A DNA stretch of 24,514 nucleotides from Pyrobaculum sp. (GCA_046293555.1 JBKBOT010000021.1:1-24514); one strand, 5' to 3'. Positions 249 through 20,385 are shown, counted from the stretch's first letter. Numbers and translations: made by a program. Notes: generated from the letters alone by a model not told the origin.

Positions 249-262
249 TTTATATACGTCAC
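249..262 (-). promoter_or_regulatory. Conserved BRE-TATA-like promoter motif GTGACGTATATAAA
   Basis: One of 12 copies; start codon at 229 (33 nt away). Confidence 0.75.
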
Positions 263-297
263 CGTTGGCTTTAAATTTCCCGTGGAGTCTATGTCCC

Positions 298-459
298 ATG
301 TCTGTAGAATGTCTCAAGAGGTGTAGGGAGGGCTGTCTGGACAGCTGCTATCTTGAGTGTAGCGGCATGTGGTCCGAAGTGGATTTGGAGGGCTGTCTGG
401 AGAGCTGTGGCGTGGGCTGTGTGGAGCGGTGTGAGAAGTGGTGTGGTGGAGGACCATGA
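298..459 (+). CDS. 53-aa Cys-rich peptide, (CX3)4C-X11-(CX3)4C
   Basis: ATG 298 lies about 28 nt after TTTAAA (270). Ten Cys at regular i+4 spacing. The stop overlaps the PCNA start (ATGA at 456-459). Confidence 0.7.
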   Translation: MSVECLKRCREGCLDSCYLECSGMWSEVDLEGCLESCGVGCVERCEKWCGGGP

Positions 460-1196
460 GGCTTGTCTACCCCTCCGCGAAGGAATTCGCCTACATTGTA
501 GACGCAGTCGCCGCGTTGGTGGACGAGGCCGAGTTTGTGGTCAGGCGGGACGGTCTGTACCTAAGGATGTTGGACATGTCCAGGACGGCCATGGTGGACC
601 TCGCCATCCCCAGGGAGGCCTTCGAGGAGTTTCCGGATGTGGAGGAGCTCAGGGTTGGCCTCAACCTCAAGGACCTGATGAAGATCCTCCGCCGCATCAA
701 GAAGGGCGATAAGATCGCCATTGAGCCGGGGGAGGGGAGGGTCAGGGTGAAGCTGGTGGGCAAGTCCACGCGTTCCGTGGCCCTCCGCCCGGTGGAGCTC
801 ATACCGGAGGAGATGCCTAGGCCCAAGTTCACCGTGGCGGCCACGTTGAGAGTTACATCCGCCGTGTTGTTAACCATGTTGAGAGACGTGGCTGTGGTAG
901 GCGACGAGGTGAGGTTCGAGGCCAGCATCGACGCCTTTGTGGCAAAGGGCGTAAGCGATAGGGGCGAGGTCGAGGTGAGGCTTGAGAGGGGGAGCGAGTT
1001 TGTATATGGATATGAGGTTAGGGAGCCCGCCTCTGCAAAATACTCCCTGGACTACTTGTTGAAGATGGCGCAGAGGGGGGCCAAGATCTCCGACGTGGCC
1101 ACACTGGAGTTCGCCACGGCGAGGCCCGTGGCGTTGACCTTCGACCTGCCGTCAGGCGTGGCGTTGACCTACTTCCTGGCGCCGCGTGTGGAATGA
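456..1196 (+). CDS. pcn: DNA polymerase sliding clamp (PCNA)
   Basis: 246 aa. PCNA motifs LVDEA-F, MLDMSRTAMVDL-IP-EAF, G(L)NL-DL-KIL-R, GDEV-F, A-YSLDYL and C-terminal YFLAPRVE. GGAGG RBS before ATG 456. Confidence 0.95.
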   Translation: MRLVYPSAKEFAYIVDAVAALVDEAEFVVRRDGLYLRMLDMSRTAMVDLAIPREAFEEFPDVEELRVGLNLKDLMKILRRIKKGDKIAIEPGEGRVRVKLVGKSTRSVALRPVELIPEEMPRPKFTVAATLRVTSAVLLTMLRDVAVVGDEVRFEASIDAFVAKGVSDRGEVEVRLERGSEFVYGYEVREPASAKYSLDYLLKMAQRGAKISDVATLEFATARPVALTFDLPSGVALTYFLAPRVE

Positions 1197-1225
1197 CCTA
1201 TTTTTACCTTGACATCCCCCCAACA

Positions 1226-1239
1226 ATAACGTATTTTTA
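1226..1239 (+). promoter_or_regulatory. Conserved promoter motif ATAACGTATTTTTA
   Basis: ATG at 1259 (33 nt away). Confidence 0.6.
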
Positions 1240-1258
1240 ACTACACATTTTTCCTTCC

Positions 1259-1606
1259 ATGTCTCTAGCCGAGGCGGATCTGTTGAAACGTGTGATTAGA
1301 CAGCTCAGCGGCGACGTGGAAAAAGACGTGTCTAAGATAAAATCCGCGCTGACTAAAGCCGGCTATCGTGTTACAGACGTAAAGACAGAAGACAGATACG
1401 TAGAGGTGGAGTTCACAGACGATCCCAAGGTCTACAGAGTGTGGCTCTACAAGTTATCGCTGGACTTCGACTTCGGCAAGGCGACTTTGACAAAACACAT
1501 AACGGAGAGGTCGAAAGACGGCAAGTTCAAAAACCTGACCGAGACCGTGGCCATACCGCTAGACCTACGGCAAAAGGAAAAAAGAAGGCGGCGGCAGAGG
1601 GTTTAA
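1259..1606 (+). CDS. Hypothetical protein with C-terminal basic tail (KEKRRRRQRV)
   Basis: Clean 115-aa ORF with a motif promoter and an Arg tail like those of the array proteins. Confidence 0.8.
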   Translation: MSLAEADLLKRVIRQLSGDVEKDVSKIKSALTKAGYRVTDVKTEDRYVEVEFTDDPKVYRVWLYKLSLDFDFGKATLTKHITERSKDGKFKNLTETVAIPLDLRQKEKRRRRQRV

Positions 1607-1630
1607 AAAACCGTCGATGCCATATACACA

Positions 1631-1918
1631 TCACCTCACTTGTGTGAATATAAATAACACCAAAACGATGATCGCCAGCCCCCCCAATATGACGTATACC
1701 GCGCTTACGTTTGCCCTCATTTGGTCTAACATGGGCGCCAGCTGAGTTGCATTGGGCCATTGTATAGCCACCAGCCTGTCGGACAGGTCGTACAACATCG
1801 TGAATATTATCGTTGTGACAAAACCCATGGCCATCAACACCGCCAGAAAGATTATTATCTTAATTGGCCCAACGCCGCCTTCATCCCTCTCTACACCTCC
1901 ACCAAACACTATACCCAT
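1631..1918 (-). CDS. Small two-TM hairpin membrane protein (possible minor capsid/pilin-like)
   Basis: Two hydrophobic helices joined by a loop with N-A-T and N-V-S sequons; overlaps the stop of the upstream gene. Confidence 0.65.
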   Translation of the reverse strand: MGIVFGGGVERDEGGVGPIKIIIFLAVLMAMGFVTTIIFTMLYDLSDRLVAIQWPNATQLAPMLDQMRANVSAVYVILGGLAIIVLVLFIFTQVR

Positions 1919-2163
1919 TGTGCCCTCAACGCATACATTATAACCGACCCGACCAGCAAGATTTTCAACACCATGGCGTTGGTCAATATCGAAAATATGG
2001 CATCTACAACGTCGGATAGATACCCAGCGTTTGGGGTCTGCCTCCCAATTTGCGACATTGTGTGGGCCATGGGCAACATCTTTTGAAACATCTGTGCCAC
2101 ATAATCCGCTCCGATCAACACGGCCACGATCAACACGGCGAGCGCCGCGACCTTTACCTCCAT
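1909..2163 (-). CDS. Small two-TM hairpin membrane protein
   Basis: GGTGAT RBS before ATG 2163; two hydrophobic segments. Confidence 0.65.
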   Translation of the reverse strand: MEVKVAALAVLIVAVLIGADYVAQMFQKMLPMAHTMSQIGRQTPNAGYLSDVVDAIFSILTNAMVLKILLVGSVIMYALRAQWV

Positions 2164-2168
2164 GTTTA

Positions 2169-2784: not shown

Positions 2785-3402
2785 TCACTGTCTCCCCACC
2801 ATGTAGAGTAGAAACGCTGCTAGAAACATGACTGTCATGACGACGTTTGCAACAGGGTTCTGGCCCAGGGCTTGTTGCATCAAGAAGAGCGTTATGCCCC
2901 CAACCACCATCCCTATAGCCAGCTCGGCCCTGCCGCTGTGTAGACTATATATCACAACGCCGAGGACTATAATTGGCGTCAAGATCTTGGAGATCGAGTC
3001 TAACGCCGTCCACGGCCCCCCGACCACGGGGTTCCCCGGCGTGGGCTGCGGGGCGGTCCACTGCACGTATGTACAAGACAGGCTGAAGTGTGTCGTCGGC
3101 GGCGCTTGGACTATAGTGGCCATTGTTGTGGAGAAGGTGTGTGTTCTATACAACGTTGTGGTGTTTACAATGTATTTAGTCTGGGCGTAGGTATACGGCG
3201 TCCCCCCCATAGTCGTGGTGTTGGTGATGGCGATCACAGTGGTGTCGTAGTTAAAGATCGTCTCTGTGGAGGTGATTATGTAGGTGGTCCACGTCGTCAT
3301 GTTTACCCTAGAGACGTAGGTAACTTCAAAACACGTGGCCTGGCCGAGGGCTATGACCGCGACGAGGAGAAGCGCTACTGCCGCGTTCTGTGGGCCAGCC
3401 AT
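2785..3402 (-). CDS. Thr-rich surface glycoprotein with signal peptide and three C-terminal TM helices
   Basis: N-terminal hydrophobic signal; Thr-rich beta-like region with N-M-T and N-T-T sequons flanked by a Cys pair; hydrophobic C-terminus. Confidence 0.75.
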   Translation of the reverse strand: MAGPQNAAVALLLVAVIALGQATCFEVTYVSRVNMTTWTTYIITSTETIFNYDTTVIAITNTTTMGGTPYTYAQTKYIVNTTTLYRTHTFSTTMATIVQAPPTTHFSLSCTYVQWTAPQPTPGNPVVGGPWTALDSISKILTPIIVLGVVIYSLHSGRAELAIGMVVGGITLFLMQQALGQNPVANVVMTVMFLAAFLLYMVGRQ

Positions 3403-3604
3403 CCCAACACGCTTAGGAGGACTCCAACCGAAAACACAAAGATGCCATATTGTGAAAAGTATCTGTAGTCAACGTGGTATGCAAATGGGGCGTTTAACGC
3501 AGATGCGACTTGGTTATGTACCTCAACCAGCTTTGCCTCAAAGAAATACATGAGTATCAACGCTATGGCGAACATGGCTATCAACAGGAGCGCAAATACG
3601 ATGC

Positions 3605-3608
<4 letters not shown>
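3375..3608 (-). CDS. Small two-TM membrane protein
   Basis: ATGA-coupled to the upstream gene; two hydrophobic helices. Confidence 0.65.
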
Positions 3609-4203
<595 letters not shown>

Positions 4204-4207
<4 letters not shown>

Positions 4208-4551
4208 ACCCTCAGCCCAACCCTCCGCCTCCGCCGCCGTGTAGCCTCAGCCACGACTGGAACTTCAAGTGACGCGAGAAACCTGTGGACAAGCCCCCTC
4301 ACCGCCTCCACATCGCTGCCATGTTTAATCGCCAGGGGGATCAAGTAGCGGGCGCGTTTCTTTATCAGCTCGAGGAAGTTCCTATACCCGACGTCAGACA
4401 TGCGGATCGGCCTACATGAGTGGTCATACGTAACGCCAGACCGAAGCTCCTCCCGCATCTTCGACAAAATCGCCGCCGCAGACCTAGACGTGATGTAACT
4501 ATACGGAAGCTTGTAACAAGAGTTGGGCCCCAAATAGATATTTCTACGCAT
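4204..4551 (-). CDS. Basic protein with C-terminal RRRRRR tail (candidate nucleoprotein)
   Basis: ATG 4551 is 34 nt from motif promoter (4572-4585); basic composition. Confidence 0.75.
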
Positions 4552-4571: not shown

Positions 4572-4585
4572 TATAAATACGTTAA
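4572..4585 (-). promoter_or_regulatory. Conserved promoter motif TTAACGTATTTATA
   Basis: ATG at 4551 (34 nt away). Confidence 0.65.
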
Positions 4586-4886: not shown

Positions 4887-5032
4887 GTGTAAAAGAAATT
4901 AATAAAAATTTAAAAAACCACCCCATCACACGTGAGCCAAAACACAACTCTAAAACAAACAGATATATCACAGACCTGACGGTTTTTATTGGCTATAACT
5001 CGGTCGTTTGTCTCGTGGACACGGCGTGTATG

Positions 5033-5335
5033 TTAAACTCCGAATATGATCCTAACCACCTCGAATAACATGAATCCTATAGAAAATACGAGCATCGCGA
5101 CGCCCATCTTCCAAACGGTTTCGTTAATCGTACAGAGCTTGTCGTATTTATATATCGTCGTGGTGCCAATTACATCGTTGATAGATGTGGCGTTGACGAC
5201 CACCAACTGACATTCCGCAGAGAGGAGCGCGGTGGCTATGGACGGAAGAAAGAGGAGAAATGCGGTCCACCTATGTCCGTAATAATACGCAACAAGACCA
5301 ACAACAAAAAAAGACAGGGGGATTAACCAAATCAC
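5033..5335 (-). CDS. Small membrane protein (3 TM) with glycosylated Cys-bounded loop
   Basis: Overlaps the stop of 5332..5625; N-A-T and N-E-T sequons. Confidence 0.7.
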   Translation of the reverse strand: MIWLIPLSFFVVGLVAYYYGHRWTAFLLFLPSIATALLSAECQLVVVNATSINDVIGTTTIYKYDKLCTINETVWKMGVAMLVFSIGFMLFEVVRIIFGV

Positions 5336-5625
5336 CTAGCTCTGCCGCCGAGGCTTGTAAACGTGGTTATTACCAGGAACACAATTCCAAGCGCCACCAG
5401 TACCATAGGCATAACTTGCATCAAGCTTAGCGAGTTAGTTGTAGTCCGTACAAACTGTTCTACTTGTGTCTTATTGGCGCCTGCTTGGATAGCTATATCT
5501 GCCATCATCGGCACTATCATGTATAACATCAAGCCGACCACTACAATTAGCGAAATTATTGTCAGCCATCTAATCGCTTTTTCTTGGTCTATGTCAATGA
5601 AGCCTCTTACTTTGCCCCTATCCAT
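5332..5625 (-). CDS. Candidate major capsid protein of spindle-shaped-virus type (hydrophobic helical hairpin)
   Basis: Start reassigned to ATG 5625 (33 nt from motif). Basic leader MDRGKVRG; helix 1 ...VGLMLYMIVP; loop with N-K-T; helix 2 SLMQVMPMVLVALGIV. The pattern resembles fusellovirus VP1 by eye. Confidence 0.55.
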   Translation of the reverse strand: MDRGKVRGFIDIDQEKAIRWLTIISLIVVVGLMLYMIVPMMADIAIQAGANKTQVEQFVRTTTNSLSLMQVMPMVLVALGIVFLVITTFTSLGGRAR

Positions 5626-5644: not shown

Positions 5645-5658
5645 TTTATATACGTCAC
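5645..5658 (-). promoter_or_regulatory. Conserved promoter motif GTGACGTATATAAA
   Basis: ATG at 5625 (33 nt away); 5641-5658 is identical over 18 bp to 245-262. Confidence 0.75.
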
Positions 5659-10314: not shown

Positions 10315-10823
10315 TCAGAATACCCGTCGTCTCTTTTTTCCGCCGGATTTGTTATGAGGTTTGTCTCCAGATACCACTTCCTCATGTGATTGTTCTGTAG
10401 ACAATCCGTGTACTTCCACCTCTCTACCTAAGAGTGGATATATGATATATCTACCATACAGATCTGTGTTGTAGTCTCTAATGTATATAGTCACAGAGGA
10501 GTCGTCCGGTTTGTTTAAGCACAACCAAGAATATATATTAAGTTTATACCTCCCGACCTCAGCTATGTATGATAGCAAGTAATTGTATCTACCCTTGTTA
10601 ACTGATAGTAGATATCTAGATACTTACTCAATCCATGCCTATCTGCAAACTCTTTGATGATTTTATCCAACGCCTTTACGACCTCGCGTAATGTATATGC
10701 GGTGACCATCATCTTATCTATCTCACCAAACTCCAAACGGTCCATGGCGCCTTTAAAGACCTCTAGATGTGACCTCAACGCCTTTACGACCTCGTTGACC
10801 AGTTGTTTCAACAGTGACGATAT
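10315..10823 (-). pseudogene. Broken member of the Arg-tail paralog family
   Basis: ORF 10563..10877 matches the family N-half (LVNEVVKALRSHLE...FADRHGL). ORF 10315..10578 matches the C-half (LSY...NI...KPDDSSV...YIIYP...KKRRRVF). One extra base at about 10581 joins them. The expected start position reads ATA. Confidence 0.7.
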
Positions 10824-10827
10824 ACTA

Positions 10828-11382
10828 CTATACTCTCCGTTTACGTCGAGTGTTTTTACGCTGCTCGACCTCGGCACCGCTGTGTTTGGGATATATAGTG
10901 CTGTTTATGTAATTGTGTATATATTGTTTAGCCTTACCTATGGGCACTTTCTCCTCAAACCTCACATTGCTGTATGGCCAGATGGTGTATCTATAGAGTT
11001 TCCCCTCTCCGTGGTCTTCCATAAACACGTCTATAGACGCATCGTCCATCCTCTCCATCGGCATAACGATAAATATGTTAAGCACAACGTAGCGCCCAGA
11101 ATGGACAGAATAGATGTTGTTAGACAATGCGAAGATCTTATCTTTTGTGTTCGGCATTGGCATAATGATGTTAGTCGCACTAGAGAAGCCGTATCTACGC
11201 AAGATCTCTTCGATAAGTTTCGTCACGCTAGCCGAAACATCCGCCGGCGGCCTCTCCTTAACCCACTTCATGGCCCCATCAGGACCTGCCTCCTCTGCCA
11301 CCCTCCTGACCTGCTCTAGGTAGGGCTTGGCCAGCCTCAAGACCCCCCACGCCAACTCGCCCGGGAGCTTACGTAGGGACAT
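10828..11382 (-). CDS. Arg-tail paralog family protein (tail RKNTRRKRRV)
   Basis: GAGGT RBS before ATG 11382; close paralog of 11394..11936 (shared KIFALS, NIFIVMPM--MDDASIDVF). Confidence 0.85.
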   Translation of the reverse strand: MSLRKLPGELAWGVLRLAKPYLEQVRRVAEEAGPDGAMKWVKERPPADVSASVTKLIEEILRRYGFSSATNIIMPMPNTKDKIFALSNNIYSVHSGRYVVLNIFIVMPMERMDDASIDVFMEDHGEGKLYRYTIWPYSNVRFEEKVPIGKAKQYIHNYINSTIYPKHSGAEVEQRKNTRRKRRV

Positions 11383-11393
11383 ATACCTCACTA

Positions 11394-11936
11394 TTACGTC
11401 TTCCGTCTACGTCGAGTGTTTTTACGTGAGCTATCGCCACCCCTCTTACGGAGAGACATTGCGTTCCTTAGGTAGTCGGCTAGGTGTTGACTCACCTCGC
11501 CAATGGGCACAGACTGTTCGAAACTCACGCCGCGGTACGGCCCGACTGTATGTCTATAGCTCATCCCACTCCCACGGTCGTGTACAAACACATCTATAGA
11601 CGCATCATCCATTTTTTTCATCGGCATGACGATAAATATGTTAAACAAGGCGCCGTCTTCCGAATAGACGTTGTAAGACAGAGCGAAGATCTTCTCGTCC
11701 ACATTCGCAATGGGTATCACCGTATCGTAGGCTCTAGGTAGGCCGTATTTATCGGCCAGGTTGTTGACAAACTGTATAAGCCCCCTCAAGAGCCCCATCG
11801 GCGGCCTCCCCATGACCCACAACATGGCGCCAGACGGCCCCACCACATTCACCACATTCTTGACTTGGTCGAAATATGGCCTAACCAACTCGGCGACGCC
11901 CCTCGCCACCTCGCCCGAGAGCCTACGTAGAGACAT
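11394..11936 (-). CDS. Arg-tail paralog family protein (tail RKNTRRRRKT)
   Basis: ATG 11936 is 33 nt from the motif promoter. Confidence 0.85.
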   Translation of the reverse strand: MSLRRLSGEVARGVAELVRPYFDQVKNVVNVVGPSGAMLWVMGRPPMGLLRGLIQFVNNLADKYGLPRAYDTVIPIANVDEKIFALSYNVYSEDGALFNIFIVMPMKKMDDASIDVFVHDRGSGMSYRHTVGPYRGVSFEQSVPIGEVSQHLADYLRNAMSLRKRGGDSSRKNTRRRRKT

Positions 11937-11955
11937 ATGTCCCAATACCTAAAGG

Positions 11956-11969
11956 TATATATACGTCAC
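11956..11969 (-). promoter_or_regulatory. Conserved promoter motif GTGACGTATATATA
   Basis: ATG at 11936; the TGA within the motif is also the stop codon of the upstream gene. Confidence 0.75.
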
Positions 11970-12532
11970 CTCCGCCTGCGGCGACGACGCCTATTGTTGT
12001 CTTCACCCCTATCGACATCCTCCTCGTCAAGTCCCATTCTGTGTAACACATTCATATACTCTCTGTATAGATTTTCGATATCCTCCCAACTATATGTCTC
12101 CTCATCTTTCCATCCATGTAGCGGAAATATGGCATAGCTGTAGACCAACTCATCGGTCTCATCGGCTGGGACATATACGTCCACTATAGCGCTTTTCGGC
12201 TTTTGTAACGATAATGCAACGTTTACTGTAAATAGAACTCTCTCGCCTGTTTCAAGCGTGTACGACATTATGTAGATCTTATGATTGGTGTCTACAATCG
12301 GATCGATTATGCCGATAGCGTCGGGGATCCCGTACGCACTAGCAAAAGCCTTGGCGAATCCGTCTACGGCAGATGCGATTTTCTCCATCGTCATATTGAC
12401 AACATTACGTCTAGCTTGTGATTGAGGCCCCGCCCTTGACATCATCTTTACAAACTCCTTGAGGTGTGGCTTGATGACTTTGGCCACCTCCTCCGCTATA
12501 GCCTTAGCTAACTCGCGTGGATGTTCCATCAT
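11966..12532 (-). CDS. Arg-tail paralog family protein (tail R8)
   Basis: HPRELAKAIAEEVA...YGIP...YSYAIFP family motifs. Confidence 0.85.
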   Translation of the reverse strand: MMEHPRELAKAIAEEVAKVIKPHLKEFVKMMSRAGPQSQARRNVVNMTMEKIASAVDGFAKAFASAYGIPDAIGIIDPIVDTNHKIYIMSYTLETGERVLFTVNVALSLQKPKSAIVDVYVPADETDELVYSYAIFPLHGWKDEETYSWEDIENLYREYMNVLHRMGLDEEDVDRGEDNNRRRRRRRR

Positions 12533-13071
12533 GTCCTTTTGCCACGCCTCCTCCTTTTTCTGTCCTCCCCCTTCCCCTCGCCCCCGCCGCCTCCAAACCC
12601 CCCCTCAGCAAACCTGCGCACTTGTTCTGGCGACAAGACTTGTTCGTGCTCCTCGCCTGTAAACGGCGCAATCGCGTATCTATACACAGAGCCGTCTAAA
12701 CCCCTCACGCCTACAGACACGAAAGAGAGCTCCGGCGCATATATGTTCAACGTGATGATGGCAACCACTCTCTTCATGCCGCCTATAACCCAGCTGTATC
12801 CAACCATGAAGCTCCCCTTTTCTTGATCCACAAAGATGGGCTCTATCACCGAGTACACATCCACGCCATATATCTGCCTAATTGCCGTCGTGACTTTATC
12901 TAACTCCGTTATGATCTTACGTATTGCGTAGAGGGCCGCAAGCGGCTCGTCCAAGCCGACATACTTGGCGTTACGGACACGCCTACGGAACTTATCCAAA
13001 TGGGGATAGGCAACCTCGAGGACGTGATCAGCCACCTCCTTTGCTATATCCATTGGATTTTTGCCTTGCAT
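12529..13071 (-). CDS. Arg-tail paralog family protein (Gly linker + RKRRRRGKRT)
   Basis: NPMDIAKEVA...YRYAIAPFTGE; ATG is 33 nt from the motif. Confidence 0.85.
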   Translation of the reverse strand: MQGKNPMDIAKEVADHVLEVAYPHLDKFRRRVRNAKYVGLDEPLAALYAIRKIITELDKVTTAIRQIYGVDVYSVIEPIFVDQEKGSFMVGYSWVIGGMKRVVAIITLNIYAPELSFVSVGVRGLDGSVYRYAIAPFTGEEHEQVLSPEQVRRFAEGGFGGGGGEGKGEDRKRRRRGKRT

Positions 13072-13090
13072 ATACCCCTACGTCTAGAGA

Positions 13091-13104
13091 TATAAATACG
13101 TCAC
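13091..13104 (-). promoter_or_regulatory. Conserved promoter motif GTGACGTATTTATA
   Basis: ATG at 13071 (33 nt away). Confidence 0.75.
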
Positions 13105-13128
13105 CATTTCGCTTATTCCCAGAGAGCC

Positions 13129-13590
13129 TTAACGCGCCGCTTGTCTGCGCCCCCTCTTCCGCCGTGGCTCCTCGTTGTAGTAAATTCTCGCCTCACCTGC
13201 CCACTTGAGTATGTCGTCTTCTGTAATTACCCCGCCGTCCAGAAACGGAGACTTCTCGTACTTACGCACCACTCTGCCATCCCTCACCACATATGCAGCT
13301 ACAGCCATCGAACCCTTTAGGGACATCACTATAACCATTGTGTGATGATGTCTATTTCTCACAATCAGTTTGTACGTCAAGATAAGTAGCCCCCTCTCTT
13401 GCTCTTCAAACACCCTAGCCACTATGTAGGTCCCCTGCTTTTCCGTAACCGTGTAAATATAGTCGTCAATAAGCTTGTTCACCAACAACGTGATTTTATG
13501 TGACATGGAGACATAGGCACTTCCAACCCTTTTTACAACTCTCCTAACCTCTCCAGCCAGCCTGTCTACAAACCCCCTTAGACCGTCCAC
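13129..13590 (-). CDS. Divergent Arg-tail family protein (tail RRKRGRRQAAR)
   Basis: LAGEV N-terminal helix, beta-rich middle, SPF motif and basic tail. Confidence 0.75.
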   Translation of the reverse strand: MDGLRGFVDRLAGEVRRVVKRVGSAYVSMSHKITLLVNKLIDDYIYTVTEKQGTYIVARVFEEQERGLLILTYKLIVRNRHHHTMVIVMSLKGSMAVAAYVVRDGRVVRKYEKSPFLDGGVITEDDILKWAGEARIYYNEEPRRKRGRRQAAR

Positions 13591-14090
13591 CGCCGCCTCC
13601 TACGCCTAGGCGCAGCTCCCGAAGGCGGTTCAAACACGGGCGGCCTAAGCCCGCCTAGAGGGCCGCCATGTAGCCTCTCGCCGGTGAGCGGGTAGACGGC
13701 GTATGGATATTTACCAAACCCCCCCTTCCAGTCGTATACGTTCACCTTCACCAATGCCTTGTCTATATCATGCGGAGGCACAATCACCTTTATGATGGCC
13801 AGCCAATCGCGTGTGTATATGCTATATGAGTATATGTACTGATTGGGATCAAAGGCGAATCCGAAGTCTAAAATAAGGCGTTCAAACCTAGGCAAGTCGT
13901 AGGTTTTGGCAAAGGCCTCCACAAGACCGTCAAGCGCGTTGCCAACCTCTCCCTTGAACTCACTAAACGCCGCGACCAAGTCCAGGCTGGATTTAGCTCT
14001 AGTCGCCCTCTCCTTAAGCCTCTCTATATACGGCTTTACAACCTCGGCCGCCCCCTCGGCCAAGGCCTTGGCAAGATCCCCAGGATGCAT
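13578..14090 (-). CDS. Arg-tail paralog family protein (tail PRRRRRRWTV)
   Basis: MHPGDLAKALAE...YDLP...YAVYPLTGE; ATG is 33 nt from the motif. Confidence 0.85.
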   Translation of the reverse strand: MHPGDLAKALAEGAAEVVKPYIERLKERATRAKSSLDLVAAFSEFKGEVGNALDGLVEAFAKTYDLPRFERLILDFGFAFDPNQYIYSYSIYTRDWLAIIKVIVPPHDIDKALVKVNVYDWKGGFGKYPYAVYPLTGERLHGGPLGGLRPPVFEPPSGAAPRRRRRRWTV

Positions 14091-14109
14091 ATATCCCAAC
14101 GCCTATGGA

Positions 14110-14123
14110 TATAAATACGTCAT
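14110..14123 (-). promoter_or_regulatory. Conserved promoter motif ATGACGTATTTATA
   Basis: ATG at 14090 (33 nt away). Confidence 0.75.
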
Positions 14124-14137
14124 TTTTTACGATTACA

Positions 14138-14686
14138 TTACTGTCGTCTTTTACGCCTTTTACGCATTAAGTCATACGCCTCTTTTGACCCTCCAGCTCC
14201 AAGTACTTTCATATCTTTTGCAGCTCTCTTGACGGCACGTGTGTATTCCTCTAATGACAATTCGTCTTGCTGCCTCTCGTCAGTGAACGGATAAATTGAA
14301 TACAAATATACTTTCCATCTGCCAAAAGCCGTAACGACTATAGACGAACTGTTTGGATCTCGTAACGGTATGGTGATAGTTATGTTTGCTAACTGCCATC
14401 CCCCCTCTGTGAACAAGTTGTATGTTAATATGTACGTTTCTGTCTCAACGTTAATAACAGGCACTGCGTAGATAAACACTTTCGGCAAGCCGTAAGTACG
14501 GACGACGTCCATCACGACGTTGTTTGACGCCTCTATGATCCCTTTAGTGAGGCCATCTAACGCGGCCAACCCCTCTCTAGAGGTGCCGCCCACCTCAGTT
14601 GTTATTGTCTTATATCTCTCTAAATACGGCCTTACCGCTTTGGCGATATTTTCGGCCAACGTTTTCGCCAACTCTTTGGGATACAT
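14138..14686 (-). CDS. Arg-tail paralog family protein (tail RKRRKRRQ)
   Basis: MYPKELAKTLAE...YGLP...YSIYPFTDE. Confidence 0.85.
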   Translation of the reverse strand: MYPKELAKTLAENIAKAVRPYLERYKTITTEVGGTSREGLAALDGLTKGIIEASNNVVMDVVRTYGLPKVFIYAVPVINVETETYILTYNLFTEGGWQLANITITIPLRDPNSSSIVVTAFGRWKVYLYSIYPFTDERQQDELSLEEYTRAVKRAAKDMKVLGAGGSKEAYDLMRKRRKRRQ

Positions 14687-14705
14687 ATGCCACTACACCT
14701 AAAGA

Positions 14706-14719
14706 TATAAATACGTCAT
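14706..14719 (-). promoter_or_regulatory. Conserved promoter motif ATGACGTATTTATA
   Basis: ATG at 14686 (33 nt away). Confidence 0.75.
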
Positions 14720-14738
14720 TGTGGCATATAGTATTGCC

Positions 14739-14819
14739 TTACACATAGGCCAGACCGCATATCTCTAGGCACTTGTGTCTACTAACAACAAGAGCTTTTG
14801 CTAACTCTTTAGGACGTAT
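14739..14819 (-). pseudogene. Relic 5' fragment of an Arg-tail family gene (IRPKELAKAL...)
   Basis: 14790-14819 resembles 14657-14686; the start position reads ATA and no motif promoter remains. Confidence 0.55.
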
Positions 14820-14902
14820 AAACCACTACCTTAACACATACATGTTCCACACACACCCCCAGACTAGAGGTCCCCCACATGCGGCGGCGCCCACCTCTGT
14901 CC

Positions 14903-15388
14903 TCACACCGCCACCCTCTTACGCTGACGTGTTTGATTTACAGCTGTCTGTGTTGTTAACTCTACCTTCTCGCTCTCCTCGCCTGTGGCCAGGTTTAGCC
15001 TGTATACATAACGCTTATCGCGATGTCTTATGTAGACGGTCATATACGACATCTCCGGCCGATGTGCGTATAAGTCAAGACGTAACTCAAACCACCCATC
15101 GCCCCCCTCCAGTGGATACCCCTCTATTGGATACGCCACAAACCTCCCGCTGAGCTTCAACTGCCCCTCGTCGAGACTTATGTGCTCTACATAATACCCC
15201 CGCGTGTAAATCCTCGTGAAGGCGGCCAAAACCTCCACAATCTCCCTCCACCAGTCGTCAACCTCCTCCCTCATGGTCTTGAGGCTGGGCTCCTCCCTAA
15301 TGGACTTCAAAATCCCCGCCAAAGCCCGTCTCGCGTATGAATCCCTCAAGACAAACGTCGCCGTCCGCCTCGCCCACTCCACGTCCAT
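14903..15388 (-). CDS. Hypothetical protein with basic tail (RQRKRVAV), probably a distant array member
   Basis: Helical N-half and beta-rich C-half with YVYRLNLATGE; ATG is 33 nt from the motif. Confidence 0.8.
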   Translation of the reverse strand: MDVEWARRTATFVLRDSYARRALAGILKSIREEPSLKTMREEVDDWWREIVEVLAAFTRIYTRGYYVEHISLDEGQLKLSGRFVAYPIEGYPLEGGDGWFELRLDLYAHRPEMSYMTVYIRHRDKRYVYRLNLATGEESEKVELTTQTAVNQTRQRKRVAV

Positions 15389-15407: not shown

Positions 15408-15421
15408 TATTTATACGTCAC
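15408..15421 (-). promoter_or_regulatory. Conserved promoter motif GTGACGTATAAATA
   Basis: ATG at 15388 (33 nt away). Confidence 0.75.
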
Positions 15422-15571
15422 TACGACAAAAACACACCATCGACACGCACATCGCCGTTGTTTGAATTTATTGAAATTTTTCAACAAAATGGCTGCAACA
15501 ACGCCGCCGCGCGTGTTCTGTCTGTTGTCCTTATATTGTTGCACATGTGTGGACACATGTCATGTATCTCC

Positions 15572-16668: not shown

Positions 16669-17184
16669 ATGTACAACGACCTTGCGGCATGGACGCTAGC
16701 TACACTCCTGGCCCTGGCAGGTTGGCGTGATGTAAAACACAGAGAGATAGAGGTATGGATCTTCGCCGCAATGGCGCCGCCAGCAGCATATCTCGTTTTG
16801 GCCAGTTGGCAAGACCCCGTATATCAACTCCAGTTCATGTTAGGCGCCGTATATGCCTTGGCGCTGGTATACATCCGCGCAGGCGCTGGCGACATCTTGG
16901 CGGCGCTGGCCGCAGCGGCGGCCGGGGCAACTCTTACCGTGTTTCTCCTTACGGCAACACTCATAGCGTTAACGCCACTGTGGCTGTACGCGTTAAACAC
17001 CAGGAGGCCTTGCCCCATGTCAAGGCGAGAGAGGGCCACGTATATATGCATACGCCGCGGGGAGTTTGGAAAATACGGCGTCGAGGCTGAGGGGGAGTGG
17101 GCAAAGGCGAGGTACGGCCCGCCGTATGTGGCATGGATCGCCGCTGCCGTTTGCGTGACGTATATATATCACTGTTGTGTGTGA
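16669..17184 (+). CDS. Prepilin peptidase, family A24 (GxGD intramembrane aspartic protease, PibD/FlaK-like)
   Basis: WRDVKHREI (first Asp), GAGD (second Asp), C-terminal PY--I motif and multiple TM helices. Confidence 0.8.
   Translation: MYNDLAAWTLATLLALAGWRDVKHREIEVWIFAAMAPPAAYLVLASWQDPVYQLQFMLGAVYALALVYIRAGAGDILAALAAAAAGATLTVFLLTATLIALTPLWLYALNTRRPCPMSRRERATYICIRRGEFGKYGVEAEGEWAKARYGPPYVAWIAAAVCVTYIYHCCV
17155..17168 (+). promoter_or_regulatory. Conserved promoter motif GTGACGTATATATA
   Basis: ATG at 17188 (33 nt away); embedded in the 3' end of the peptidase gene. Confidence 0.75.
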
Positions 17185-17187
17185 CAT

Positions 17188-17760
17188 ATGGCGCTTAGAC
17201 GTAGAGCTGCGAACGTCGTTAGAGTCAGCTGGGGAGTCCACCCACTTGCACACGACATATGGAAACACATCGGCGGATATGTGAAGGACGTGTTGAGAAA
17301 GGGGCTGAGAGACGCTGCGTTCAACTTGTGCTACGGCGCGTTGACGCATACAATGGGGTGTCCAGACGGCAGCGGTCTGTACGTATACCGCGAGGACGAG
17401 GCACCGATTGGCAACAAGGAGCATCTGTTTAACGAAGGCGGCTGGCGTTTTTACATATACGGCCCACTCTTTGTGACATATGCCGTCAGCCAGTTTGTGG
17501 ACAGAGAAAAAGTGCCGTTGACATACGACGAGGCGATGGAGGTGGTCAGACACATCGCCGAGAGGAGTCCAAAGCTCGCCGCCACCCTGGTGGCACACCT
17601 TGCGTTCCCGCCGAGGAGCGACGAAGACCACATGTACGTCTACGACTTCCTAAAGGCGGCGAAAAAGATCATGCCCTACAAGGAGGGGGAGATAAACGAT
17701 TATGTGTTCTGGAGGCTACAGTCAAAACCGTTCCGCGGCAGGGGAACGTTCACGTTTTAA
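17188..17760 (+). CDS. Hypothetical protein, paralog of 16001..16666
   Basis: Shares motifs with 16001; basic N-terminus MALRRR. Confidence 0.8.
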   Translation: MALRRRAANVVRVSWGVHPLAHDIWKHIGGYVKDVLRKGLRDAAFNLCYGALTHTMGCPDGSGLYVYREDEAPIGNKEHLFNEGGWRFYIYGPLFVTYAVSQFVDREKVPLTYDEAMEVVRHIAERSPKLAATLVAHLAFPPRSDEDHMYVYDFLKAAKKIMPYKEGEINDYVFWRLQSKPFRGRGTFTF

Positions 17761-18491
17761 AACATGTAGTCTAACATAGCGTCTATACATCTCACGTCGA
17801 CAGACTCTTTTTTCACAAGCCTTGCCGTTAGCCTTAACGCCTCGTGGTATGCATGACTACTCCCAGACGTCAGATATGCGGCAAGACTTGACAGAACGTC
17901 TGGCTCTGTGTGAAACAACGTGGCGACACATCTGTTCCAACTGCCGCGACCGAGTCTTTCAACCATATCGAGGACAAAGCCTGAAAGCTTGGAGACATCC
18001 AAGAGGACTGTGCGTTCCACATCTACATATGGCTCTACTCGTTTTACAACATACGCGATTACCTCGTTGAGGTATATGCCAGATGTCGTGATGAAATACA
18101 CTGCGGCCGATAAGTGATCTACGCCGCTCGCGACAACCACGTTCGGCATACGTCTATACATTTTCTTCATATCGCTAATTGACATCTTGTCGTCAGGTAT
18201 TGGTATTAAGTATACCGACATATCCCCATAAAACTTAGCAACGCCGTGTTTATACCCAATGGACGCAAACGCCATATGTTTCGCGTCTAACTTCTCGTTT
18301 CTCAACATGGTGAAAAACACAACGTCTACGTCAGATGCGTCGGACTTAAGTTCAGGCAATCTGTCAACCCCCTCTAAAACATAACCATTCCCCCTCCTCA
18401 TAACTCCCCCCTCACCATCTAACGTATACACAACGCCGTGGAGCACTAGGGTGTTTACCATTAGGTTATCAGTAGGCTTTACTTCCAACAT
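17757..18491 (-). CDS. Hypothetical protein, possibly a shortened Cas8a2/Csa4-like (type I-A large subunit) homolog
   Basis: The CDS is solid (TATA upstream). N-terminal NTLVLHGVV--L...RRGNGY and C-terminal YLTSG----Y-EALR--AR resemble Cas8a2 by eye only. Confidence 0.45.
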   Translation of the reverse strand: MLEVKPTDNLMVNTLVLHGVVYTLDGEGGVMRRGNGYVLEGVDRLPELKSDASDVDVVFFTMLRNEKLDAKHMAFASIGYKHGVAKFYGDMSVYLIPIPDDKMSISDMKKMYRRMPNVVVASGVDHLSAAVYFITTSGIYLNEVIAYVVKRVEPYVDVERTVLLDVSKLSGFVLDMVERLGRGSWNRCVATLFHTEPDVLSSLAAYLTSGSSHAYHEALRLTARLVKKESVDVRCIDAMLDYMF

Positions 18492-18550
18492 ATCGTAAAG
18501 GACATATAGCTATATAAATTCAACATTTAATACAACATATAACGCCGTTT

Positions 18551-19483
18551 GTGTCTGTTTGCATAATCGCTTTAGGCACGCCGCTGGACGCCAAGCCGAG
18601 GCCATGGCTGTATTTTGAAGTGCCCGTTTTGCTCATAAACGCATTAGAAGTAAAGGACAACCCCCGCTCTGTATTACAACATGACGGTAAGCTTTGGATA
18701 GACTCCGGCGGCTATCAGATAATGAGGAAGGGAATTACAATAGACGTTTACGACGTAATTAAAATATACGAGAGGGTAAACGCCGATCTCTACTTCTCTT
18801 TAGACGTGCCTCCCACTCCACAAGACCCGCTTGAATTAGCAAGAAAGAAGTTCGAAAAGTCTTATCAAAACTGGCTAAAACTGTCGAAAAGGATAGAGGT
18901 AGTGCCGGTGTTACATGTGTATAAAGACGCAAAGCTGTTTTTAGAGTATTTAGAGAAATACGAAAACGTCCCCGCTCTTGCTATTGGTGGCGCTGTGCCG
19001 TATGTCCTCACCACACGGGGCGCTTCTAGACAGTTTGCGTTTAGTTTGATCGCAGCCGCCAGGAGGCGGTTTAAAGGTAAGCTACACGTCTTCGGCCTCG
19101 GCAGCCCGGCCATTACGCCCATATTAAGGGCATTGGGCATAGACAGTACCGACACGGCCACATGGCGCCTTAAGGCGGCATATGGAAAAGTGCTTCTTCC
19201 AGGCGGCGGGGAGAGACATGTAACTAAGAGGGAGGTGAAGTTTGGAAAAAAGAAGCCCAAAGACGGCGAACTTGAAGAGCTATACCACTTCCTAAGAGAG
19301 ACGGGATTCCCCCTGGCGGACGCCTTTTTTGAAAGGCTAAACCGCTTTGAATATAGAGCGTTGGTAAACGCGTGGGTTGTGTTGAGACCAGAAAGACCAC
19401 CAAGACCTACCGAATTCAGAAAGCTATATAACACACTCACCAACGGGTTAGAGAAGTTCATAATCAAGGCAGAAAGAGTATAG
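18551..19483 (+). CDS. Guanine transglycosylase (TGT/DpdA-like) family protein
   Basis: WIDSGGYQ, LDVPP, VPVLH, LAIGG, LHVFGLG and GIDSTD-ATW motifs; no CxCxxC zinc site and no PUA extension. Confidence 0.85.
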   Translation: MSVCIIALGTPLDAKPRPWLYFEVPVLLINALEVKDNPRSVLQHDGKLWIDSGGYQIMRKGITIDVYDVIKIYERVNADLYFSLDVPPTPQDPLELARKKFEKSYQNWLKLSKRIEVVPVLHVYKDAKLFLEYLEKYENVPALAIGGAVPYVLTTRGASRQFAFSLIAAARRRFKGKLHVFGLGSPAITPILRALGIDSTDTATWRLKAAYGKVLLPGGGERHVTKREVKFGKKKPKDGELEELYHFLRETGFPLADAFFERLNRFEYRALVNAWVVLRPERPPRPTEFRKLYNTLTNGLEKFIIKAERV

Positions 19484-19620
19484 GCCGGACTGACGGGGAT
19501 AGCCCCCACTACCACTACCCATTCCACCACTCATTACCCCCATATATGTCATTAGACAAGTCGAATGTTTTTTCGCCTTTTCATTGTTACCTACGGCGAG
19601 ATACGCCGTAGTTTTTATTT

Positions 19621-19762
19621 TCTAAACATTCGCGGCATATGTCCAAAGATTTCCAAACATTCACATTTTATTTCCAAAGATTTCCAAAAATTCACACATT
19701 TCCAAACATTTGTGGTTTTGGTCCAAAGATTTCCAAAGATTTGTGCCGTGGCTCCAAAGATT
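19621..19762. repeat. Array of nine 10-bp direct repeats TCCAAA(G/C)ATT (iteron-like)
   Basis: Copies start at 19621, 19642, 19652, 19673, 19683, 19701, 19722, 19732 and 19753, in an AT-rich gap between convergent genes. Confidence 0.85.
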
Positions 19763-19814
19763 CTCTAGAGAATAAGAGAACCGGCCCCCGATAGGATGCG
19801 TGTAGAAAGTCAGC

Positions 19815-20282
19815 CTAGCCTTGCTTCAAGGCCTCGGCCAGCTGGGGGTATTGCGAAATCTTGTCCATTGGGGCTATGTGGCAATACTTCCCATCGCTGT
19901 GCCAGACGTAGACGTATTGTTGTTTATAGTCAGTTCTGACGCCAAGCCGCCCGGGCCGGCCACATTTTGGACATGTGACAAGCGGTCGCCTTGGGTGTGG
20001 GCCGGGCCTCAGCCTTATCCCAGCCTGCCGCAGGTTGTTCTGTATGATGTAAACCGAGACCCCGAGCTCCCTTGCGATTTCCCACAGCCTTAGCCCTTTT
20101 TCGTATAGCTCCAACACCTTGTTGATATCTACAGACCTCCAACGTCTTGTAGACACGCCATATTGCTTGAGATACTTAGAGACTGTGGCTGGATTGTAGC
20201 CAAAAATGCGCGCGATCTTGTTGATAGACATTCCGCTGTCGTAAAGCTTGGCCATCTCCTTTATCCTCTCCTCGAATTTCAT
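19815..20282 (-). CDS. DNA-binding protein with two tandem HTH motifs and a C-terminal zinc finger
   Basis: GMSINKIARIFG---ATVSKYL and GLRLWEIARELGVS---I---L; CPKC...H...CH. Confidence 0.85.
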   Translation of the reverse strand: MKFEERIKEMAKLYDSGMSINKIARIFGYNPATVSKYLKQYGVSTRRWRSVDINKVLELYEKGLRLWEIARELGVSVYIIQNNLRQAGIRLRPGPHPRRPLVTCPKCGRPGRLGVRTDYKQQYVYVWHSDGKYCHIAPMDKISQYPQLAEALKQG

Positions 20283-20371
20283 GTAATGATGTAAATTCCT
20301 AGATATAAATACATTTCACACTTTTTCGCGTTACCTCAACGAAGGGCCCCAGCCTTCACATGGACACGATG

Positions 20372-20385
20372 GTAACGTATATATA
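20372..20385 (+). promoter_or_regulatory. Conserved promoter motif GTAACGTATATATA
   Basis: ATG at 20405 (33 nt away). Confidence 0.75.

Follow-up and report, generated by a model that had tools for sequence, protein, structure and literature searches.

The stretch of DNA analysed here (the window) is the 24,514-nt contig C21 of a Pyrobaculum sp. Between positions 249 and 20385 it carries a 14-nt motif at twelve sites, three on the plus strand and nine on the minus strand. The consensus, RTRACGTATWWAWA, is matched exactly at ten of them, and the copies at 1226-1239 (+, ATAACGTATTTTTA) and 4572-4585 (−, TTAACGTATTTATA) have one mismatch each. The motif has no dyad symmetry. It joins a hexamer, RTGACG, to a TATA-like 8-mer, TATWWAWA, with zero gap between the two in all copies. 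A start codon begins 33 nt from the first motif base at 11 of the 12 sites (ten ATG and one GTG, the latter at site 2602) and 34 nt from it at site 4572. The ORFs headed in this way are 30 to 190 amino acids long.

In the left part of the window, the copy at 249-262 (−, GTGACGTATATAAA) heads a 30-amino-acid ORF (137-229, −), and a T6 run comes after this ORF. The copy at 1226-1239 heads an ORF of 115 amino acids (1259-1606, +) ending in a C-terminal KEKRRRRQRV tail, and the copy at 2602-2615 (−, GTAACGTATATATA) heads the ORF with the GTG start, which encodes a hydrophobic protein of 137 amino acids (2169-2582, −). The ORF at 4204-4551 (−), headed by the copy at 4572-4585, also has an Arg tail; 3605-4207 (−) and 2785-3402 (−) lie downstream of it on the same strand. 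A pair of genes for membrane proteins, 5332-5625 (−) and 5033-5335 (−), is headed by the copy at 5645-5658 (−, GTGACGTATATAAA).

A tandem array occupies 10315-15388 (−). It consists of eight paralogues with C-terminal poly-Arg tails and two small downstream genes, in five units that each begin with the motif. The copy at 11956-11969 (−) heads the paralogue 11394-11936 (−); after this gene come 10828-11391, 10563-10877 and 10315-10578, all without a promoter of their own. The copy at 13091-13104 (−) heads the paralogue 12529-13071 (−) and then the overlapping paralogue 11966-12532 (−), and the copy at 14110-14123 (−) likewise heads 13578-14090 (−) and the overlapping 13129-13590 (−). The copy at 14706-14719 (−) heads the paralogue 14138-14686 (−), for the product of which no fold match was found (model pLDDT 84). 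Finally, the copy at 15408-15421 (−) heads 14903-15388 (−); this gene and its promoter both have a homologue on contig C25 of the same assembly (53% amino acid identity; motif at C25:9333). The terminal poly-arginine tags are C-terminal on C21 and N-terminal on C25.

To the right of the array, the copy at 17155-17168 (+) lies inside the 3' end of 16669-17184 and heads 17188-17760 (+), a gene with paralogues on C30, C66, C73 and C52. The last copy, at 20372-20385 (+), heads a very basic ORF of 40 codons (20405-20527, +). Two of the motif-headed ORFs had been described as micro-ORFs, and the motif does head both; however, 20405-20527 contains a hairpin followed by T5 (20443-20466, 62 nt past the predicted start) and may therefore be a short RNA and not a gene. 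One motif gene had been called capsid-like, and no capsid homology was found for any of the motif genes. Their grouping as a late/virion class in the preliminary description is putative.

The motif was not found upstream of pcn, the AAA operon, the tgt-like gene, the HTH gene, tfb, dcd or the MTase gene of the window, as had been stated in the preliminary description. Most of these genes have other TATA-like boxes at the same spacing, and about half of the element's transcription units are headed by a motif promoter. The tfb gene (21229-22080, +) encodes a TFB paralogue with a Zn ribbon and two TFIIB repeats and has a non-motif promoter of its own.

In 100 dinucleotide-preserving shuffles of the window, no exact match to RTRACGTATWWAWA was obtained. 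When up to two mismatches were allowed, the window gave 20 matches, compared with a mean of 2.94 and a maximum of 9 in the shuffles. The twelve copies and the fixed 33-nt spacing of the preliminary description are thus borne out, site 4572 being the single exception in spacing. The 1.75-Mb assembly contains 29 exact copies, of which 12 are on C25, 10 on C21, two each on C19 and C30 and one each on C9, C29 and C50; C21 and C25 together have 22 of the 29 on 2.6% of the assembly bases. A start codon is found at +33 in 23 of these 29 copies. Among the 581 TATA-plus-start sites of the whole genome, TGACG is the commonest pentamer flanking TATA, and all 22 TGACG-flanked sites are on four contigs (C25, 10; C21, 7; C19, 3; C30, 2). 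The 61 other genomes of the order have 0 to 3 copies each, compared with 26 for this genome in that comparison. Of 14 copies inspected in the relatives, one has a start codon at +33, and the orthologous loci of that one are without it. Copies off the element were seen on C9 (one) and at another locus, which is conserved in several genomes of the genus and in four metagenome contigs; the conserved chromosomal locus in the genus relatives carries GTGACGTATATATA. In viral and metagenome collections no related locus was found, nor was any RNA run found to contain the sequence. The idea of a private regulon put forward earlier is supported by the four-contig restriction of the pentamer and the low counts in relatives, but the motif also occurs outside 249-20385 and the regulon reaches other contigs of the assembly, beyond the scope of the preliminary description.

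Repeats of this kind might be the by-product of recent tandem duplication, or of chance in AT-rich intergenic DNA. Five of the twelve copies head one tandem paralogue family, and a repeat search joins some of the promoter regions over 36-69 nt (families D2-D4). Against such an origin, the shuffles gave no matches, unrelated genes lie behind the seven other copies in the window and behind the copies of C25, C30 and C19, and the start-codon spacing is exact in most copies genome-wide. Moreover, the paralogues of the array are 19-28% identical to its first member, yet their promoter 14-mers are nearly identical, which points to selection and not to recent copying. The shuffle, unrelated-gene, divergence and spacing counts effectively refute duplication or chance, which we consider extremely improbable.

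The position of the motif was compared with that of promoters throughout the genome. Counted from candidate starts of ORFs of at least 100 amino acids, TATWWAWA peaks at −27, with 86 occurrences there and 5 to 51 at other offsets. In 11 of the 12 window copies the 8-mer spans positions −27 to −20 relative to the start codon, at the genome-wide peak offset, and RTGACG lies at −33 to −28, the BRE position. The hexamer is thus directly 5' of a TATA 8-mer whose distance from the start codon is the host-wide optimum, and its earlier assignment to the BRE position holds. At 26 sites the base at −1 was a pyrimidine in all 26 and that at +1 was A (18) or G (8). Like leaderless BRE-TATA promoters of the Sulfolobus/Pyrobaculum type, the motif promoters have TATA about 27 nt before the start, an adjoining BRE hexamer and a pyrimidine-purine initiator on the start codon.

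The archaeal BRE consensus is RNWAAW. The BRE is described as A-rich and 3-5 bp long in passages of PMC7289017. The six bases 5' of TATA at 68 host sites follow weakly g-n-A-A-n-G, with A-3 in 57%, G-4 in 12% and C-2 in 15%, whereas at 20 element sites T-5 was found in 100%, G-4 in 90%, A-3 in 95%, C-2 in 90% and G-1 in 95%. RTGACG shares with the host preference a purine at −6 and an A at −3; T-5, G-4, C-2 and G-1 are fixed in the element but not in host promoters. The hexamer therefore agrees with an A-rich BRE in position but not in composition. Unlike canonical BRE-TATA promoters, those of the motif have six nearly invariant bases, among them the G-4 and C-2 that the host avoids, and since both are rare at host sites the motif departs from the host optimum. 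A promoter class private to the element or elements, and leaderless as judged from sequence, is well supported.

Of the 296 CRISPR spacers in the assembly, four match C21, four C25, six C19 and one C30. Spacer-targeted contigs (C21, C25, C19, C30, C29 and C50) carry 28 of the 29 motif copies on about 9.1% of the bases (binomial p 2e-28), and the CRISPR repeat type is present in 10 of 17 genus relatives. Within the window, protospacers were found at 3592-3626 (spacer of CRISPR contig C126, 35 of 40 nt aligned, 1 mismatch), 4926-4966 (C117, 41 nt, 1 mismatch), 22743-22788 (C22, 46 nt, 3 mismatches) and, inside the MTase gene, 22966-23002 (C71, 37 of 46 nt aligned, 2 mismatches). A contig from a public run links the stretch 4926-4966 to a CRISPR repeat. 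Since 22743-22788 lies to the right of tfb, this gene is flanked by targeted stretches. No synteny with genus genomes was detected; only pcn, the tgt-like gene and dcd match at the DNA level, at scattered places. Searches for virus or plasmid hallmark genes (capsid, packaging, conjugation, integrase) found none in Pfam (30 window proteins) or PHROGs (10), and no tRNA genes or terminal repeats were found. The DpdA-like, TFB, PCNA, dcd and MTase genes are similar to ones that archaeal viruses carry as accessory genes. The window probably represents a mobile element (a virus or a plasmid) whose host is a Thermoproteales-type archaeon of hot springs, and its foreign nature is well supported, because host CRISPR spacers match it.

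The element also encodes a possible regulator of another kind. The window HTH protein (19815-20282) has a Zn-ribbon domain like that of PSV ORF131, and the same domain is found in a C25 protein (41% identity over 37 amino acids, E 2e-6). Homologues are present on many spacer-targeted or small contigs. RTGACG might therefore be the operator of a separate element regulator, for which the HTH/Zn-ribbon proteins of C21 and C25 are candidates, abutting TATA and either repressing the block, as in a lysogeny-type switch, or recruiting TBP/TFB. Overlap with BRE and TATA is typical of archaeal repressors according to passages of PMC5569661. On the other hand, a motif that has no dyad symmetry and joins TATA without a gap in every copy is BRE-like. 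A separate palindromic motif private to the element, TTTCTTGAAAATTTTCAAGAAA, lies 50-110 bp upstream of some motif promoters and also at the promoter of the C25 Zn-ribbon gene, and is a better candidate site for dimeric HTH/Zn-ribbon regulators. We regard an operator function of RTGACG as unlikely.

The TFB of the window matches the Pfam families Zn_Ribbon_TF (E 7e-12) and TFIIB (E 2e-30, two stretches) and aligns to Pyrococcus woesei TFBc (1D3U, 1AIS) with an E value of 5e-30. According to parts of PMC4581349 and PMC7289017, the BRE is read by the HTH of the second cyclin repeat. The recognition helix has the sequence TEVT[VI]RNRY in 135 of 151 aligned TFBs and SPPAVKQRY in the window TFB, and six positions of the latter carry residues found in only one or two of the 151. 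The protein is at most 49% identical to any TFB of the genus, and among the matches listed by a word-indexed search of a 5.8-billion-protein collection identity was at most 41%. This genome has four TFB genes. Short fragments aside, the full-length matches in 17 genus relatives are one TFB1-like and one TFB2-like protein each, which fits the statement in the portion of PMC3388794 consulted that Pyrobaculum species carry tfb1 and tfb2. A second extra TFB, on the spacer-targeted C35, is 29% identical overall to the window TFB, and its helix shares the SP and K substitutions. The window tfb, overlooked in the preliminary description, would be the most obvious candidate reader of the motif.

Instead, the private promoters might be read by host TFB1 or TFB2, the extra bases marking a strong or specially timed promoter or a cassette spread by recombination. 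Some other role would then fall to the element TFB, which might be, for example, a competitor, or an activator comparable to Sulfolobus TFB3. Since the hexamer retains two features enriched in host promoters, a purine at −6 and an A at −3, it might still be usable by host TFB1. Among the motif contigs a TFB gene is present on C21 only; on C25, C30 and C19, which carry the motif, no TFB is present in the sequence as assembled, and the promoters of C25 would require a different reader should that contig be an independent element. The occurrence of GTGACGTATATATA at a conserved chromosomal locus of genus relatives is in keeping with a host reader. So are statements in the consulted parts of two papers, that archaeal viruses are generally thought to rely on host TBP and TFB (PMC5569661) and that canonical TFB action is not obligatory for TFB paralogues, as in TFB3 (PMC7289017). 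A host reader must contend with the disfavoured G-4 and C-2, however, and with TFB2 in that role the regulon would be expected in TFB2-bearing relatives, in contrast to the few copies and the single +33 start found there. Nor does it account for the rebuilt recognition helix in the TFB of the element. Reading by host factors thus appears rather doubtful.

A leaderless promoter class private to the element, with a BRE variant read by the element's own TFB, is the explanation we prefer, at roughly even confidence. We infer the pairing of TFB and hexamer from their co-occurrence and from the changed helix; the start of transcripts at the ATG and the timing of expression are likewise predictions from sequence. 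The only TBP of the host would bind TATWWAWA (−27 to −20) as the TATA box, RTGACG would take the BRE position at −33 to −28, and transcription would begin at the first start-codon base, as set by the pyrimidine-purine step at −1/+1. The element TFB, made from an ordinary promoter, would then pair with host TBP and RNA polymerase and turn the motif genes on as one block. The products of this block would be orphan proteins, together with membrane proteins and others bearing a terminal poly-arginine tag, and other promoters would serve genes of replication, of the metabolism of nucleotides, of DNA modification and of regulation (PCNA, AAA+ ATPases, DpdA-like transglycosylase, HTH, TFB, dcd and MTase). 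The whole scheme would be an archaeal counterpart of a phage-encoded sigma factor. More tentatively, and at somewhat less than even confidence, we suggest that a TFB with a re-engineered helix and rewritten BREs at about half of the promoters redirect host RNA polymerase, and that the poly-Arg tag is a signal for sorting or packaging common to the products of this regulon.

TFB genes have been noted in other archaeal viruses, including the Sulfolobales viruses YNP1 and YNP2, some rudiviruses, Halorubrum tailed viruses and the Asgard virus JinchiV1 (parts of PMC13700489). As in the window, they often lie beside a queuine-tRNA-ribosyltransferase-like gene and a methyltransferase, and none is tied to a promoter class in those passages. 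Virus-encoded TFBs are about 30% identical to the window TFB, and YNP1 TFB, the one other viral TFB inspected, has the canonical helix VTIRNSY. Extra TFB paralogues address promoter subsets in haloarchaea and in the case of Sulfolobus TFB3 (sections of PMC7289017). Like the haloarchaeal alternative TFB/TBP paralogues and TFB3, the window TFB may be an extra TFB for a promoter subset; those paralogues are chromosomal, whereas here the TFB is on CRISPR-targeted DNA, has a rebuilt helix and co-occurs with a private hexamer. Unlike TFB3, the window TFB keeps the Zn ribbon and both cyclin repeats. The 'GTC' motif of SIRV1/2, downstream of TATA, is common to many virus promoters and absent from the host, according to passages of PMC5569661. 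It too is a short conserved element beside TATA, but the hexamer of the window occupies the BRE position and has a candidate reader encoded nearby. Known regulators of archaeal viruses are small repressors or global polymerase inhibitors (same passages of PMC5569661), and classes of archaeal-virus regulatory sequences are reported to have been used to find anti-defence genes (PMC11065993).

Viral TFB genes have thus been noted in genome annotations, and the literature, as far as it was consulted in part, ties none to a promoter class. The present locus offers a testable pair: at least 26 nearly identical promoters with a six-base BRE change, and one TFB with six changes in its helix, at positions that are normally invariant. 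Together they could reveal how TFB/TFIIB-type factors encode BRE specificity and could yield an orthogonal promoter-factor set for hyperthermophile genetics. The motif is also a practical marker that separates element contigs from host contigs in this metagenome.

Phage sigma factors such as SPO1 gp28 and T4 gp55 serve middle and late promoters. In structural terms, TFB HTH2 bound to the BRE corresponds to sigma region 4 bound to the −35 element, according to passages of PMC4581349. If the proposed pairing is true, archaeal invaders would seize transcription through its specificity subunit, as phages do, and the element would provide a working archaeal/eukaryote-type analogue of the phage sigma-factor cascade. 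Like the phage systems, it would combine a promoter-recognition subunit supplied by the invader with a private upstream element that marks a block of genes; unlike them, it uses in practice a different protein family, in a different domain of life.

The window carries twelve copies of a 14-mer made up of a hexamer, RTGACG, and a TATA box, TATWWAWA. The preliminary description had placed all twelve under one consensus. The twelve sites were confirmed, but RTRACGTATWWAWA as written matches exactly at ten of them (and nowhere in 100 dinucleotide-preserving shuffles), while the copies at 1226-1239 (+) and 4572-4585 (−) each have one mismatch. When up to two mismatches were allowed, 20 matches were found in the window against a shuffle mean of 2.94. 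The fixed spacing was also borne out: 11 sites have their start codon exactly 33 nt from the first base of the motif and site 4572 has it at 34 nt, and the ORFs behind the copies have 30 to 190 codons. As described earlier, the motif is missing before pcn, the AAA operon, the tgt-like gene, the HTH gene, tfb, dcd and the MTase gene; most of these non-motif genes are preceded at that distance by a different A/T-rich box. The copy counts, the spacing and the absence before these genes together confirm the observation.

The evidence on the motif is sequence evidence from one metagenome assembly of 1.75 Mb in 145 contigs, in which the window is the whole of contig C21. The assembly contains 29 exact motif copies, of which the window (contig C21) has 10, contig C25 has 12, C19 and C30 have two each, and C9, C29 and C50 have one each; a reversed control pattern gave no match. 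A start codon followed by an ORF of at least 25 codons was found at +33 in 23 of the 29. Among 581 genome sites with a TATA-like 8-mer and a start codon 26-28 nt further on, TGACG was the commonest flanking pentamer, and all 22 of the sites flanked by it lie on C25, C21, C19 and C30.

These contigs are targets of CRISPR spacers. We extracted 296 spacers from arrays with the repeat GAATCTCAAAGAGAGGATTGAAAG, a repeat type that 10 of the 17 genus genomes also have; large arrays are located on C22, C71, C72, C92, C98, C102, C111, C114, C117, C125, C126 and others. Spacers matched 14 of the 145 contigs (C19 six times, C21 and C25 four, C50 and C35 three, C66, C61 and C29 two, C30 and five others once), so host and invaders were binned together. 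The window protospacers, at 3592-3626, 4926-4966, 22743-22788 and 22966-23002, flank tfb on both sides. The spacer-targeted contigs make up 9.1% of the bases and hold 28 of the 29 exact copies (binomial p ~2e-28), and six of the seven motif contigs belong to the targeted set (Fisher p 2e-6). As spacer targets, the motif contigs C21, C25, C19, C30, C29 and C50 represent foreign DNA in this host lineage.

In 61 other genomes of the order the RTGACG form was found 0-3 times per genome, compared with 26 times here. Among 14 copies fetched from relatives, a single one had a start codon at +33, and this codon was absent from the orthologous loci of other genomes. The motif had been described as private, and these counts, with the restriction of TGACG sites to four contigs, agree with that. 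Public collections gave the same picture. A scan of IMG/VR for motif, spacing and start codon returned 22 unrelated stretches with one match each. Among 80 listed of 92 stretches from a scan of metagenome contigs, multiple copies occurred only in three AT-rich simple repeats, four stretches were a conserved host locus of the genus, and tblastx of the scan stretches against C21, C25, C30 and C19 gave no match. A literature search for the motif string found unrelated primers only. The conserved chromosomal locus, aggtgtatctGTGACGTATATATAatcatgac, bears the same 14-mer in four relatives (G041, G045, G046 and G047; stretches L068-L070 and L075) and in metagenome stretches L081, L083, L099 and L141, and was not found in this assembly. 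Its ATG at +33 is not conserved, so the locus may drive a non-coding RNA. We are highly confident in the motif as a genuine promoter, private to the CRISPR-targeted foreign contigs of this assembly.

The two halves of the motif differ in their relation to host promoters. Before candidate starts of long ORFs in the whole assembly, TATWWAWA has a sharp peak at -27 (n = 86 versus 5-51 at other positions); the host therefore has leaderless promoters with the same TATA-to-start distance as the motif. The six bases 5' of the TATA box are weakly biased at 68 host sites (g-n-A-A-n-G), whereas at 20 sites on element contigs they read R-T-G-A-C-G with 90-100% agreement per position. This comparison puts the hexamer exactly at the BRE position, as had been proposed. 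The preferences at -6 and -3 are common to both sets, and four more positions are fixed in the hexamer; two of these, G-4 and C-2, are avoided by host promoters. In 26 of 26 sites whose start codon lies at +33, position -1 is a pyrimidine and +1 is A or G, in agreement with the initiator rule as described in PMC7289017, and the predicted transcript start of motif promoters would fall on the start codon.

The motif heads twelve units in the window. Five of them head a tandem array of eight paralogues on the minus strand (10828-15388), three of which are the second genes of overlapping pairs. The paralogues are 19-28% identical to the first one, whereas the 14-mers before them are nearly identical, which argues for selection on the promoter and against recent copying. 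Together with the absence of matches in shuffles, this excludes chance or simple duplication as the source of the copies. A profile of the eight paralogues searched against 1.84 billion representative proteins found nine, eight with the lengths of the window's own paralogues and a ninth of 139 aa that was not placed; no relative was placed outside this assembly. The AlphaFold model of 14138-14686 (pLDDT 84) consists of a helical hairpin, a six-stranded sheet and a C-terminal helix, and Foldseek gave no match for it at E <= 0.001 in PDB or BFVD. As Pfam and PHROGs also returned nothing for the motif-headed proteins searched, the earlier label 'capsid-like' is without support. Behind the remaining motif copies lie genes for small membrane proteins, for a Thr-rich membrane protein and for more orphans.

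The products of the motif genes are marked by poly-arginine tags at one terminus. A polybasic C-terminal tail occurs in 7 of the 12 motif-headed window ORFs, including 1259-1606, 4204-4551 and the array within 10315-15388. On C25, 11 of 12 motif-headed ORFs have a polybasic N-terminal tag (M-x-V-R-R-R...), encoded mostly by AGG AGG CGT. This coding places GGAGG just after the leaderless start, so the tags may have a role at the nucleotide level. The micro-ORF at 137-229 (−) is followed by a T6 run; that at 20405-20527 contains a stable hairpin and T5 from 39 nt past the predicted start (dG -19.7 kcal/mol, z -2.4) and may therefore be a short RNA of about 62 nt, covering 20405-20466. Giant orphan ORFs were also seen on spacer-targeted contigs, one of 3775 codons on C30 (L011:8297-19624), with the motif at its head and no Pfam match, and two of 1533 and 1494 codons on C19 (20-4621 and 5431-9915). 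Every window gene that could be assigned to replication, nucleotide metabolism, DNA modification or regulation is on a non-motif promoter. Such a split is compatible with an early/late design, and the earlier 'late/virion' class is a putative one.

By content, the window genes that could be identified are consistent with a virus-like accessory set. Pfam and PHROG searches identified a PCNA and two AAA+/STAND ATPases, whose PHROG matches include a DnaA-like initiator. The set further includes a DpdA-like transglycosylase (40% identity to the STSV1/2 enzymes and ~29% to the SIRV rudivirus enzymes), an HTH protein with a PSV_ORF131-like domain, a TFB, a dCTP deaminase and an N6 methyltransferase. 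Neither capsid nor integrase was found on the window with Pfam and PHROGs among the proteins searched, and scans for tRNAs and terminal repeats found none; the element may be a virus or a plasmid. Nucleotide matches in genus genomes are limited to the pcn, tgt-like and dcd genes, which match at unlinked positions. In a phage collection, neither megablast with the whole window nor tblastn with the paralogue at 14138-14686 gave a match, and related-locus searches of IMG/VR with the TFB and an AAA ATPase found no relative. No end-overlap joins were found among C21, C25, C30 and C19, which may belong to one replicon or to several. Among public runs, the window stretch was found in one, of DNA and probably the source metagenome, and in no RNA run. 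The contigs of this run cover the window at a depth of 7-12, one extends 308 nt beyond the left end, and the run has a CRISPR-repeat junction at 4926. Three dCTP deaminase genes in the assembly (window 22125-22658, C38:2815-3340 and C66:467-990) are 93-95% identical at the protein level, and the C66 gene has an MTase fragment and a 17188-17760 paralogue as neighbours. These copies point to several related elements or to strain variants, which would explain the contig break within the MTase gene.

Other repeats were noted on these contigs. A palindrome, TTTCTTGAAAATTTTCAAGAAA, is a second element-private motif and probably a site for a dimeric regulator. It is located at 2721-2750 and 15463-15492 of the window, at C19:21739, 21842 and 21908, C25:9262 and 11973, C41:317 and C96:1193; of these contigs, C19, C21 and C25 are spacer targets. 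All seven exact cores, TTGAAAATTTTCAA, in the genome are on small accessory or MGE-type contigs. Some RTGACG promoters are preceded by the palindrome at a distance of 50-110 bp, and the C25 Zn-ribbon gene has it at its promoter. Between the DpdA-like and HTH genes, four iteron-like direct repeats (19613-19772, unit ~TCCAAAGATTTCCAAACATT), with a 76% similar stretch at C41:6114-6243, may serve as an origin of replication or as an array for a regulator. Upstream of the PCNA gene, which has no TATA-like box at the usual distance, GGAGGGCTGTCTGGA(C/G)AGCTG occurs twice, 60 bp apart at 327-347 and 387-407, and includes the dyad CTGTC-TG-GACAG.

As for the protein that reads the motif, this genome has four TFB genes, and full-length matches gave one TFB1-like and one TFB2-like gene in each of 17 genus relatives, in agreement with the statement in PMC3388794 that all Pyrobaculum species carry tfb1 and tfb2. 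The two extra genes are in the window (21229-22080, +) and on C35, both spacer-targeted contigs; genus genomes have almost nothing that matches C35 at the DNA level. In the window TFB the Zn ribbon and the two TFIIB repeats are all present, and the protein can be aligned with the P. woesei TFB core of 1D3U and 1AIS. Its identity to genus TFBs reaches 49% at most and, among the matches listed from a word-indexed search of 5.8 billion proteins, does not exceed 41%. We aligned 151 TFBs (120 database hits including the query, and 31 from the genus and this genome). The BRE-recognition helix is TEVT[VI]RNRY in 135 of them and SPPAVKQRY in the window TFB, with residues at six positions that occur in only 1-2 of the 151. 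In its preceding helix, I stands in place of a Q found in 148 of the 151, and E in place of a K/R found in 149. Overall identity between the C35 TFB and the window TFB is only 29%, yet the SP and K substitutions are common to both. The C35 gene (L173:5744-6562) has a degenerate first Zn-ribbon half and the recognition helix TSPSSIKEAV; no private BRE was found for it, and C35 has a single near match, GTAACT+TATTTAAA. The only TBP gene of the genome is on C2, and none is encoded by the element. Autoregulation of tfb through a GACGTAT core 3' of its own TATA box (21211) was rejected as unsupported, since 8 of the 16 GACGTAT copies in the window lie outside motif copies.

A private change at the BRE position and a private change of the BRE-reading protein surface thus occur on the same foreign contig, and this co-occurrence is the core of the proposed mechanism: the element's own TFB, with its altered recognition helix, would read RTGACG at motif promoters. 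We consider this tentatively, at close to an even chance. The motif may instead be read by a host TFB; the hexamer retains two host-favoured positions, and C25, C30 and C19 have no TFB on their assembled sequence. However, the fixed G-4 and C-2 are disfavoured at host promoters, and relatives with the same TFB1 and TFB2 show no such regulon. A separate regulator may also bind the hexamer, since C21 (19815-20282) and C25 (11530-11967) both code for HTH/Zn-ribbon proteins, but the motif is asymmetric and abuts the TATA box in every copy, and the palindrome suits such proteins better. With a sharply defined variant of the BRE and a unique alteration of the TFB helix, the element offers an unusual pair that can be tested directly.

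Virus-specific promoter elements such as the SIRV 'GTC' element (PMC5569661), promoter specificity from alternative TFBs in haloarchaea (PMC7289017) and TFB genes in some archaeal viruses (PMC13700489) have each been described. Database matches placed TFB genes in YNP1/2 and Halorubrum tailed viruses. Unlike the window TFB, that of Sulfolobales virus YNP1 has a canonical recognition helix; YNP1 (L066) has its own repeated promoter classes, with TTTATTTTTTAAC-type boxes before at least six genes and aaaagtttatatactggttaagca before four. The literature consulted on virus TFBs and promoters yielded no invader TFB paired with a private BRE. Like phage takeover through sigma factors, the element's TFB and its private BRE would work by directing transcription to the element's own promoters.
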